A DNA stretch of 64,000 nt from Escherichia coli. GTDB lineage: Bacteria; Pseudomonadota; Gammaproteobacteria; Enterobacterales; Enterobacteriaceae. Each line of letters starts with the position of its first letter. Within the stretch, counting starts at the first letter, position 1. Below the pieces are notes generated by a model that had not been told where the DNA came from, did not search any database, and worked only from the letters and a program-made list of their open reading frames with translations. Positions 33,727 through 34,674 of the stretch are shown here, piece by piece. The DNA lies in NCBI RefSeq assembly GCF_003334335.1, contig NZ_QOWQ01000001.1, one strand, 5' to 3'. The translations under genes were made by a program, and so were the position numbers.

Positions 33727-34674
33727 ATGTTCGGTCTGAGGAAAGTAAATCGAAACACTCATACGTTTGAAACCACTTTTCAAAATTGGAAAGAAAATGG
33801 CGAAGATGTTGCATTATTAATGCCCGAATTTAGTGCTAAATGGCTACCGATAGCAGAAGAGAGTGGCAGCTGGTCTGGATGGGTATTGCTTGGAGAAATA
33901 TTTCCCTTAATTTCATCTGAGCTCGCTGGGATGGCTTTAATGCCAGAAACGGAAAGGTTAATAGGGGAATGCCTCAGTTTATCCAGTTCCCCGTTAAATC
34001 TAAAGCATCCTGAACTAAAATATAATCGTTTGCGCGTAGGTAAAGTATTTGATGGAGTATTGAGCCCTGCTCAACCACTAATAAGAATATGGACAGGGGA
34101 ATTGAATCTTTGGTTAGATAAAGTCACAGTCTGCCAATACGGAAACGCTCCAGCGTTAGACAAAAAATCGTTATATTGCTCCATTCATTTTGTAATTGGA
34201 TTTAGTAAAACATGTTACAGAAGTCTTGTTGATATTGAAGTTGGTGATGTTTTATTAATCTCAAATAATTTGGCTTATGCGGTTATTTATAATACAAAAA
34301 TTTGTGATTTAATTTATCCAGAGGAGTTAAAAATGGCTGATCATTTTGAGTACGAGGAAGATTTTGAAACAGATGATTTTGATATCAAAAAAAACGAGAG
34401 TGAGATTTATGATGAAAATGACGATCAGATGATTAATAGTTTTGAAGACTTGCCTGTAAAAATTGAGTTTGTTCTTGGTAAGAAAATAATGAATCTATAT
34501 GAAATAGACGAACTCTGTGCAAAAAGAATAATATCTCTGCTTTCTGAATCTGAGAAAAATATAGAAATACGTGTAAATGGCGCGCTAACTGGCTATGGCG
34601 AACTTGTTGAAGTGGATGATAAATTGGGCGTAGAGATTCATTCTTGGTTATCAGGGCATAATAATGTCAAATAG
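33727..34674 (+). CDS. epaO: T3SS cytoplasmic sorting-platform / C-ring protein (SpaO/YscQ family)
   Basis: 315 aa. The C-terminal SpoA domain reads KIEFVLGKKIMNLYEIDELCAKRII...GELVEVDDKLGVEI. It is syntenic with epaP. Confidence 0.88.
   Translation: MFGLRKVNRNTHTFETTFQNWKENGEDVALLMPEFSAKWLPIAEESGSWSGWVLLGEIFPLISSELAGMALMPETERLIGECLSLSSSPLNLKHPELKYNRLRVGKVFDGVLSPAQPLIRIWTGELNLWLDKVTVCQYGNAPALDKKSLYCSIHFVIGFSKTCYRSLVDIEVGDVLLISNNLAYAVIYNTKICDLIYPEELKMADHFEYEEDFETDDFDIKKNESEIYDENDDQMINSFEDLPVKIEFVLGKKIMNLYEIDELCAKRIISLLSESEKNIEIRVNGALTGYGELVEVDDKLGVEIHSWLSGHNNVK

Follow-up and report, generated by a model that had tools for sequence, protein, structure and literature searches.

A putative internal translation start in epaO, the sctQ homologue of a degenerate ETT2 island of Escherichia coli

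Internal initiation of translation in genes of the SctQ family has been documented for SsaQ, YscQ, Spa33, SpaO and HrcQ (PMC6358110 and PMC4832279 among the sources); the question raised by the locus described here is whether epaO, the sctQ homologue of ETT2, the second type III secretion system of E. coli, contains a start of the same kind, and what such a start would mean in an island that is degenerate. The stretch analysed, called the window throughout, comprises 64,000 nucleotides (nt) of E. coli contig NZ_QOWQ01000001.1 (assembly GCF_003334335.1); a preliminary description of it, made from the letters alone, had pointed to a strong Shine-Dalgarno (SD) sequence followed by an ATG inside epaO and had predicted a separately translated SpoA-domain product like the short isoforms of SpaO, YscQ and Spa33. 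The comparative evidence supports this prediction: with a probability of about 0.8, the GAGGAG-N6-ATG at codon 203 would be the ETT2 version of sctQ internal initiation, giving both full-length EpaO and a C-terminal product, EpaO-C.

Codon 203 of the 315-codon open reading frame (ORF) is an in-frame ATG at 34333-34335 ((34333-33727)/3+1), lying in the context cca GAG GAG tta aaa ATG gct gat cat; the SD, the 6-nt spacer, the codon number and the product of 113 amino acids (aa) given in the preliminary description are all correct in coordinates and in number. The codon falls in the linker, downstream of the SPOA1-like region and upstream of SPOA2, and the predicted EpaO-C holds a single PF01052 FliMN_C/SpoA domain (residues 37-106, E=1e-12). 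To call the SD strong was justified as well, its predicted anti-SD duplex energy of -8.6 kcal/mol comparing with -2.7 to -6.1 at the annotated starts of epaO, epaP, epaQ, epaR and epaS; it is the strongest SD of the whole epaO-epaS gene string.

The statistics of the site taken alone are less compelling. The pattern GAGGAGN6ATG has one exact match on the two strands of the window, while shuffled windows hold 0.27 matches on average and at least one in 20 of 100 shuffles; in-frame ATGs with a duplex energy of -8.6 kcal/mol or lower number 7 among 18,232 internal codons of the window's ORFs of at least 150 aa, and in a gene of 315 codons chance alone is expected to supply about 0.12 such sites, in a linker of 40 codons about 0.015. 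By chance statistics the isolated site is suggestive, not significant, and its significance derives from its position and from its conservation in distant homologues. These figures would suit the view that the motif is a by-product of coding, the protein needing Glu-Glu-Leu-Lys-Met at this place, with no initiation at codon 203 and full-length EpaO as the only product; the same view may draw on the invariance of E199, E200, L201 and M203 in E. coli, in E. albertii and in one 29%-identical homologue, and on the codons themselves, since with 22 GAA vs 11 GAG in the gene the use of GAG for both Glu199 and Glu200 has a probability of about 0.11.

What lends the site its significance is the comparison with other SctQ lineages. 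EpaO was aligned with 12 other SctQ proteins for which the DNA was at hand, extra lineages being drawn from tblastn searches against plasmids; identity to EpaO is 50% for E. albertii ETT2, 31-33% for the plasmid-borne type III secretion systems (T3SSs) of Providencia alcalifaciens, Yersinia frederiksenii and Yokenella, 30% for SpaO of SPI-1 (pathogenicity island 1 of Salmonella), 28% for a Salmonella plasmid T3SS and 24-25% for Pseudescherichia and Scandinavium, the proteins of E. marmotae and Burkholderia savannae, Shigella Spa33 and Yersinia YscQ being aligned as well. With EpaO as query, a word-indexed search of proteins found no SpaO, and the SPOA2 fragment of a SpaO crystal structure yielded only 101-aa 'SpaO' gene calls from assemblies with a 1-nt deletion; the spaO sequence used is the intact copy of record NZ_LN868944.1. 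This PLSDB record (728 kb, with the SPI-1 spaO), like NZ_OL790696.1 (4.8 Mb) and NZ_CP134663.1 (4.9 Mb), is chromosome-sized or carries chromosomal islands, and all three appear to be mislabelled as plasmids.

In the alignment M203 of EpaO lies at most one column from V203 of SpaO. When the linkers were scanned for in-frame ATG, GTG or TTG codons preceded by an SD, an ATG was found at YscQ codon 218, which we take to be the published start of YscQ-C. The same scan, run on each gene, independently recovered GTG192 of Spa33, which is its mapped internal start (PMC4832279), and SpaO-short is translated from GTG codon 203 (PMC6358110), so that the codon number given for SpaO in the preliminary description was right. 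An SD-preceded start with an energy of -5.3 kcal/mol or lower occurs within two codons of the aligned column in 9 of 12 lineages (E. coli, E. albertii, Providencia, Y. frederiksenii, Yokenella, SpaO, the Salmonella plasmid, Pseudescherichia, E. marmotae, Spa33, Burkholderia and YscQ; Scandinavium, near-identical to Pseudescherichia, is not counted). The background chance is 4.2% per lineage, and the resulting binomial tail of 9e-11 treats the lineages as independent and overstates the case. Spa33 and E. marmotae have instead a GTG a few codons upstream of the aligned column. Among lineages only 25-50% identical, with saturated synonymous sites, the retention of SD and start is, on the aligned sequences, far beyond chance.

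The manner of this retention is instructive. The SD region and the start codon (in brackets) read GAG GAG TTA AAA [ATG] in E. coli, GAG GAA TTA ATG [ATG] in E. albertii, GAG GGG GTG ATT [ATG] in Providencia, GAA GGG ATT ATA [ATG] in Yokenella, GAA GGG GGA ATT ATT [GTG] in SpaO, GGA GAG GAA TGT ATT [TTG] in the Salmonella plasmid, GAG GAA GGT TTT [ATG] in Pseudescherichia, GGA GAG GAA ATT [ATG] in Burkholderia and TTG GAG TTT ATC GGT [ATG] in YscQ. The residues under the SD vary by lineage (EE, EG, EGG, GEE, GD) but the codons are all GAR or GGN, which suggests a constraint on the nucleotides and not on the peptide. Distant homologues thus swap residues yet keep a purine-rich SD and a start at this place, and the aligned sites of SpaO and Spa33 are experimentally proven starts (PMC6358110, PMC4832279); we consider it unlikely that the epaO motif is a mere consequence of the protein sequence. 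As far as the comparison reaches, the site is very probably an ancestral SctQ internal initiation site.

Within E. coli, epaO matches 3205 of 5426 complete genomes at 92.5-100% identity. The exact 15-mer from SD to ATG is present in all 16 sampled alleles, which are spread over this identity range; two 30-nt queries, differing at the known C/T polymorphism at 34337, matched across SD and ATG over at least 28 nt in 2532 + 460 = 2992 genomes, the surrounding 70 nt being found in 3154, and the most divergent 70-mers inspected still carry GAGGAG and ATG. Strain DFL.5 has a synonymous change in the spacer (TTA>CTA, T>C at 34327). Variable columns number 125 of 948 among the 16 alleles, and 15 nt would stay free of variation with a probability of 0.12; the site lies in an invariant run of 24 nt, the seventh longest after runs of 51, 28, 28, 27, 26 and 26 nt. 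The check across ETT2 alleles which the preliminary description had proposed thus finds the motif in 16/16 alleles and in at least 2992/3154 genomes, but not above the neutral level; its remark that conservation in a dead system is notable does not hold, the motif being conserved no more than neutral expectation allows. Between divergent alleles the ratio of nonsynonymous to synonymous substitution rates (dN/dS) is about 0.2, and epaO has therefore been under purifying selection for most of its history. One further match, L004 (CABHOW010000183.1), is a 5-kb contig binned in a metagenome-assembled genome as 'uncultured Flavihumibacter sp.'; it encodes an EpaO 100% identical to that of the window, with no differing column over a 1008-nt alignment, and its assignment to Flavihumibacter is almost certainly bin contamination.

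The fate of broken alleles bears on another possibility, namely that EpaO-C has been retained in degenerate ETT2 islands as a free FliN-like protein acting on the flagellar C-ring or on SepQ of the locus of enterocyte effacement (LEE), whence the survival of the site. The 113-aa ORF is intact in 15/16 sampled alleles, and it stays open in four of the five whose full-length frame is broken, i.e. those of O157 (codon 12), L020 (stop at codon 52) and L017, L023 and L025, which have in common W122* (TGG>TGA at window position 34092, occurring in several Shiga toxin-producing and human isolates); the exception, L017, has an additional 1-nt deletion at codon 277, within SPOA2. Moreover, the annotation pipeline PGAP sometimes calls the C-terminal part a separate FliM/FliN family gene, and ETT2 deletions are reported to affect flagella and motility (PMC11068852). 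A rough tally of independent lesions, however, gives eight in the first 202 codons (codons 12, 52 and 122, an in-frame deletion, a junction at about 159, contig ends at 174 and 183, and an insertion sequence IS1 at 194) and four in the last 113 (codons ~250, 265, 274 and 277); this split fits the 202:113 ratio of lengths, the C part is not spared, and there is no sign of selection keeping EpaO-C as an orphan. Nor is dN/dS lower in the C part (0.26-0.36) than in the N part (0.16-0.28), the invariant stretch around the site is of ordinary length, and one strain carries an IS3-family element inserted precisely between SD and ATG. An orphan function of this kind is accordingly very unlikely. In its bolder form, strains whose ETT2 is past assembling a needle would still translate EpaO-C from its own strong SD as a free FliN-like dimer, and this dimer could interact with the C-ring of the flagellum or with the sorting platform of the LEE; the phenotypes of motility and virulence that have been reported for 'dead' ETT2 loci would thereby gain a molecular route. 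In most cases the C-terminal ORF is intact, yet its preservation looks neutral, and we give this conjecture very little credence.

Insertion sequences have entered this part of the gene in other strains. An IS1 insertion at codon 194 (34306/34307 equivalent), some 15 nt upstream of the internal SD, occurs in many other E. coli and is not in this window; it would part the N-terminal segment from the SD, the ATG and the SPOA2 ORF. Of the IS1-linked protein clusters, P0007 (194 aa) has 360 members and P0008 (193 aa) has 338; both end in ...YNTKIC(G), contigs L028-L030 end at the IS1 site of epaO, and in contig L027 (3544-3608) the sequence GGTAATGACTCCAACTTACTGATAGTGT is presumably the IS1 terminal repeat. 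The IS3-family element lies in L038 (NZ_OY754398.1, strain F437; 470-1810), in the A-run of the spacer (34328-34333 equivalent); the PGAP annotation names it an IS3 family transposase and the piece downstream a 'FliM/FliN family flagellar motor switch protein', and its ends resemble those of IS2.

At the level of the RNA, the local structure at the site does not exceed that of shuffled controls (z=0.77), the internal SD is predicted to be mostly unpaired (P=0.73), and no sigma-70-like site was found on the + strand of 33727-34320; lack of an internal promoter, unstructured RNA and a largely free SD are consistent with one mRNA bearing two starts. Other origins of the signal were set aside on the same data: the short product is unlikely to have a promoter of its own, there being no sigma-70-like match in that interval, and the z value, together with the lack of any Rfam family there, rules out that the site is a structured RNA or belongs to a known RNA family. 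On the minus strand, the window's ORF list has no entry of 40 aa or more that overlaps with the site. SD-like sequences within genes have also been proposed to pause elongating ribosomes in E. coli, a proposal that was later disputed. The hexamer does fall on the boundary between domains, in the linker that follows SPOA1, where a slowing of ribosomes could assist co-translational folding with no recruitment of new ones; such a pause would leave unexplained both the start codon kept 5-9 nt downstream in most lineages and the loss of the short product when that codon is mutated in SpaO and Spa33 (PMC6358110, PMC4832279), and is scarcely credible as an account of the site.

Several observations weigh against internal initiation in epaO. 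The SD is not universal, Y. frederiksenii keeping the ATG with a weak SD (-3.3); in the window the ATG and spacer fall in a predicted weak A-U pairing (P unpaired 0.09-0.2), though this fold is not stable; conservation within E. coli stays at the neutral level, in a test that has no power at this divergence; and the EE-L-K-M peptide could in principle be kept for reasons of the protein alone. This strain has lost the inv-like operon that natively lies upstream, which makes even the transcription of epaO uncertain, and a literature search returned no expression, proteomic or ribosome-profiling evidence for EpaO in any strain, the query 'epaO' being swamped by an unrelated acronym.

The mechanism that we propose on the model of the homologues would be the following. 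From a single epaO mRNA, ribosomes starting at 33727 would make full-length EpaO of 315 aa, with N-terminal domain, SPOA1 and SPOA2, while others, starting independently at 34333, would make the 113-aa EpaO-C, which consists of the acidic linker and SPOA2 alone; the full-length start, with the weaker SD, appears to be translationally coupled to eivJ, whose stop it overlaps (TAATG). By analogy with Spa33, YscQ and SpaO, a homodimer of EpaO-C would bind and stabilise the full-length protein within the sorting-platform pods. In homologue complexes the stoichiometry is 1:2, the short product being in excess over the long (PMC4832279), and a stronger internal SD would suit such an excess. Both initiation at 34333 in E. 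coli and a homologue-like behaviour of EpaO-C are what we infer from these parallels. As to the need for the short isoform in sorting-platform assembly, which the preliminary description had taken as general, it is borne out for Spa33 (PMC4832279) and reported for YscQ (cited in PMC6358110); it does not extend to SpaO-short, which is reported as non-essential for secretion (PMC6358110).

The numbering on which these comparisons depend calls for comment, given that PGAP flags epaO as 'frameshifted' in nearly every non-O157 genome and places its start 40 nt upstream. The PGAP reference is the 328-aa O157:H7 protein WP_001303644.1, and the O157 gene itself lacks 1 nt in codon 12 (window 33761), a deletion that breaks the MFGLR frame, with a stop after 30 codons, and fuses the reading frame to an upstream out-of-frame ATG at 33687. 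The E. albertii protein, on the other hand, has the N-terminus MFGLRHIDRDKH, and its gene overlaps the stop of the upstream SpaN-family eivJ homologue by one base (5126..6001 / 6001..6912), exactly as the ATG at 33727 overlaps the eivJ stop in the window. Hence 33727 is the native start, the numbering that yields codon 203 can be trusted and the PGAP flag arises as an artefact of annotation; a wrong ORF start was considered because of that flag and rejected. By this comparison the 315-aa MFGLR form is ancestral.

RefSeq labels the epaO product a YscQ/HrcQ family protein, and the 98%-identical cluster P0001 bears the precomputed domains SpaO_N, FliMN_C_rel and FliMN_C (PF26294 and PF26304). In the Protein Data Bank (PDB), SPOA2 matches the SpaO SPOA2 chain 4yx1 (E=1.1e-14), the YscQ-C chain 3uep (E=1.5e-7, EpaO residues 229-305) and the Shigella Spa33-C chain 4tt9 (E=2e-11), the last being named SpaO in the PDB although the aligned residues fit the Spa33 translation. 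Its neighbours are sctP (spaN/eivJ) on one side and sctR (spaP/epaP) on the other, with overlaps of stop and start codons, and the order sctP-sctQ-sctR recurs in E. albertii, in SPI-1 and in several plasmid T3SS loci. The coordinates of all features are collected in Table 1.

Table 1. Coordinates in the window of epaO, its predicted internal start and the adjoining ETT2 features.
Feature	Position	Strand	Basis or remark
eivJ (spaN homologue) 3' remnant, 120 nt	33608..33727	+	left by eivF-eivJ deletion
Weak SD AAGGA of the full-length start	33713..33717	+	duplex -5.5 kcal/mol
epaO (ETT2 sctQ homologue), 315 codons + stop	33727..34674	+	sole long ORF here; PF01052 match
SPOA1 region, approximate, residues ~144-192	34156..34302	+	weak PDB match 4yx5_A (SpaO SPOA1), E=0.08
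Internal SD GAGGAG	34321..34326	+	doubles as Glu199-Glu200 codons; -8.6 kcal/mol
Spacer TTAAAA, 6 nt (Leu201-Lys202)	34327..34332	+	read from the sequence
Internal ATG, codon 203, in frame	34333..34335	+	at most one alignment column from SpaO V203
Predicted EpaO-C cistron, 113 aa + stop	34333..34674	+	product would begin MADHFEYEED
SPOA2 / FliN-like domain, residues 239-308	34441..34650	+	PF01052, E=1.5e-13
epaP (sctR)	34664..35329	+	11-nt overlap with the end of epaO
epaS (sctU), truncated: 243-aa ORF vs ~357-370 aa	36377-37497		profile positions 2-239 of 335

In near-identical strains the ETT2 island lies beside tRNA-Gly and ygeQ, and their annotation ('missing N-terminus', locus coordinates shifted by +13726) is the basis for the eivJ remnant of Table 1. 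The window is without the genes from eivF to eivJ, i.e. those for the regulator, secretin, gatekeeper, export gate, ATPase and others. The annotation of the near-identical strains gives epaS and orgA as frameshifted; a complete set of core T3SS partners (ATPase, SctV, secretin, SctU etc.) is not present in the window's locus. With the eivF-eivJ deletion and a broken epaS the export apparatus is incomplete, and the T3SS that the window encodes cannot work. Deletions of 5-8.7 kb have been described at this end of ETT2 (PMC11068852), and the island of the window is one of the known deletion isoforms. The 'supposedly dead system' of the preliminary description is not dead everywhere: complete loci of ETT2 exist in E. 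albertii and have been reported in the literature for sequence type 69 (ST69) and for enteroaggregative E. coli (EAEC) 042, and the dN/dS of epaO is low. In a degenerate island the internal site would be an inherited relic that has yet to decay and is not kept by selection in this strain, where any EpaO-C that is made would be an orphan.

In the window tRNA-Gly (31756-31826) adjoins the island, and ygeQ (glycoside hydrolase family 15, 31943-33595), beside the deletion junction, is split into ORFs of 278 aa and 256 aa; it is one intact gene of 1611-1641 nt in other strains, and is probably a pseudogene in this window. Farther away, two tandem matches to the Rfam family OmrA-B (61302-61383 and 61498-61585) are taken as the OmrA and OmrB small RNA genes; like the tRNA-Gly, they are nothing unusual in E. 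coli.

The predicted epaO start is an unreported yet fully expected instance of a known mechanism, found in a degenerate island. Fox et al. (PMC7058095) stated that spaO gives two products and inferred the consequences for truncated epaO alleles, the site in epaO not being mapped, and a 2024 review of ETT2 (PMC11068852) makes no mention of an internal start in epaO. The understanding of T3SS biology is unchanged by the finding; the EpaO case would confirm the trait as ancestral across Inv/Mxi/Spa-type systems, among them ETT2, its E. albertii counterpart and several T3SSs borne on plasmids. In functional tests of intact ETT2 loci (EAEC 042, ST69, E. albertii) two EpaO products are to be expected, and constructs must retain both, while alleles with an upstream nonsense or frameshift mutation, such as that of O157:H7, need not abolish the C-terminal product. 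The current annotation of epaO, with most alleles flagged as 'frameshifted' against an O157-derived reference, is misleading.

Among the known systems, SpaO of SPI-1 offers the most extensive parallel: the position of the gene (after spaN/eivJ and overlapping spaP/epaP), the order of domains, the codon number 203, a purine-rich SD 6-7 nt upstream and a short product of 101-113 aa made of linker and SPOA2 are alike. The two differ in start and SD (GTG and GAAGGGGGA in SpaO, ATG and GAGGAG in EpaO), in protein sequence (identity about 30%) and in the linker, that of EpaO being 12 residues longer and very acidic; the EpaO copy lies in a degenerate island, and SpaO-short has been shown by experiment, whereas EpaO-C is predicted from sequence. 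SpaO-short is dispensable for secretion but stabilises the long form (PMC6358110). In four Salmonella assemblies (L012-L015, at about 2485-2500) the SpaO-short SD (GAAGGGGGA) has GGGG for GGGGG, and this 1-nt loss frameshifts spaO just upstream of codon 203, so that gene callers list the 101-aa SpaO-short as a gene of its own; a homopolymer sequencing error is likely, because neighbouring genes are split too (most in L012, L014 and L015). Spa33 of Shigella resembles EpaO in the tandem translation of a SPOA2 product, of about 102 aa, from a purine-rich ribosome-binding site within the coding sequence (PMC4832279); its start, however, lies a few codons upstream of the column shared by EpaO and SpaO and its SD is weaker (GGGGA, -5.5), and Spa33-C is essential for secretion (PMC4832279).

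More distant parallels are provided by YscQ with YscQ-C (Met218), by SsaQ of Salmonella pathogenicity island 2 (SPI-2) and by HrcQ of Xanthomonas (Met211), where an SD and an in-frame linker ATG likewise give a FliN-like C-terminal protein; their T3SS families are different ones (Ysc, SPI-2, Hrp), their similarity to EpaO is confined to SPOA2, and the aligned start of YscQ is shifted by about two residues. In split arrangements the same division of labour is met in separate genes, a long pod or C-ring protein and a small SpoA-domain protein being encoded as FliM and FliN in flagella and as HrcQA and HrcQB in P. syringae; epaO differs in having one ORF with an internal start. A split sctQ of this kind was considered for the window and rejected, epaO being one uninterrupted ORF of 315 codons; a physical split of the gene is found only in the IS1- or IS3-family-interrupted alleles of other strains. 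The closest orthologue outside E. coli is the 303-aa SctQ of E. albertii (50%), which shares the PEEL(M)M motif and has GAGGAA followed by tandem ATG-ATG at codons 202 and 203; its SD is one G weaker (-6.0) and its linker shorter than in EpaO and, unlike the island of the window, its locus is apparently complete, with secretin, gatekeeper, export gate and ATPase genes.

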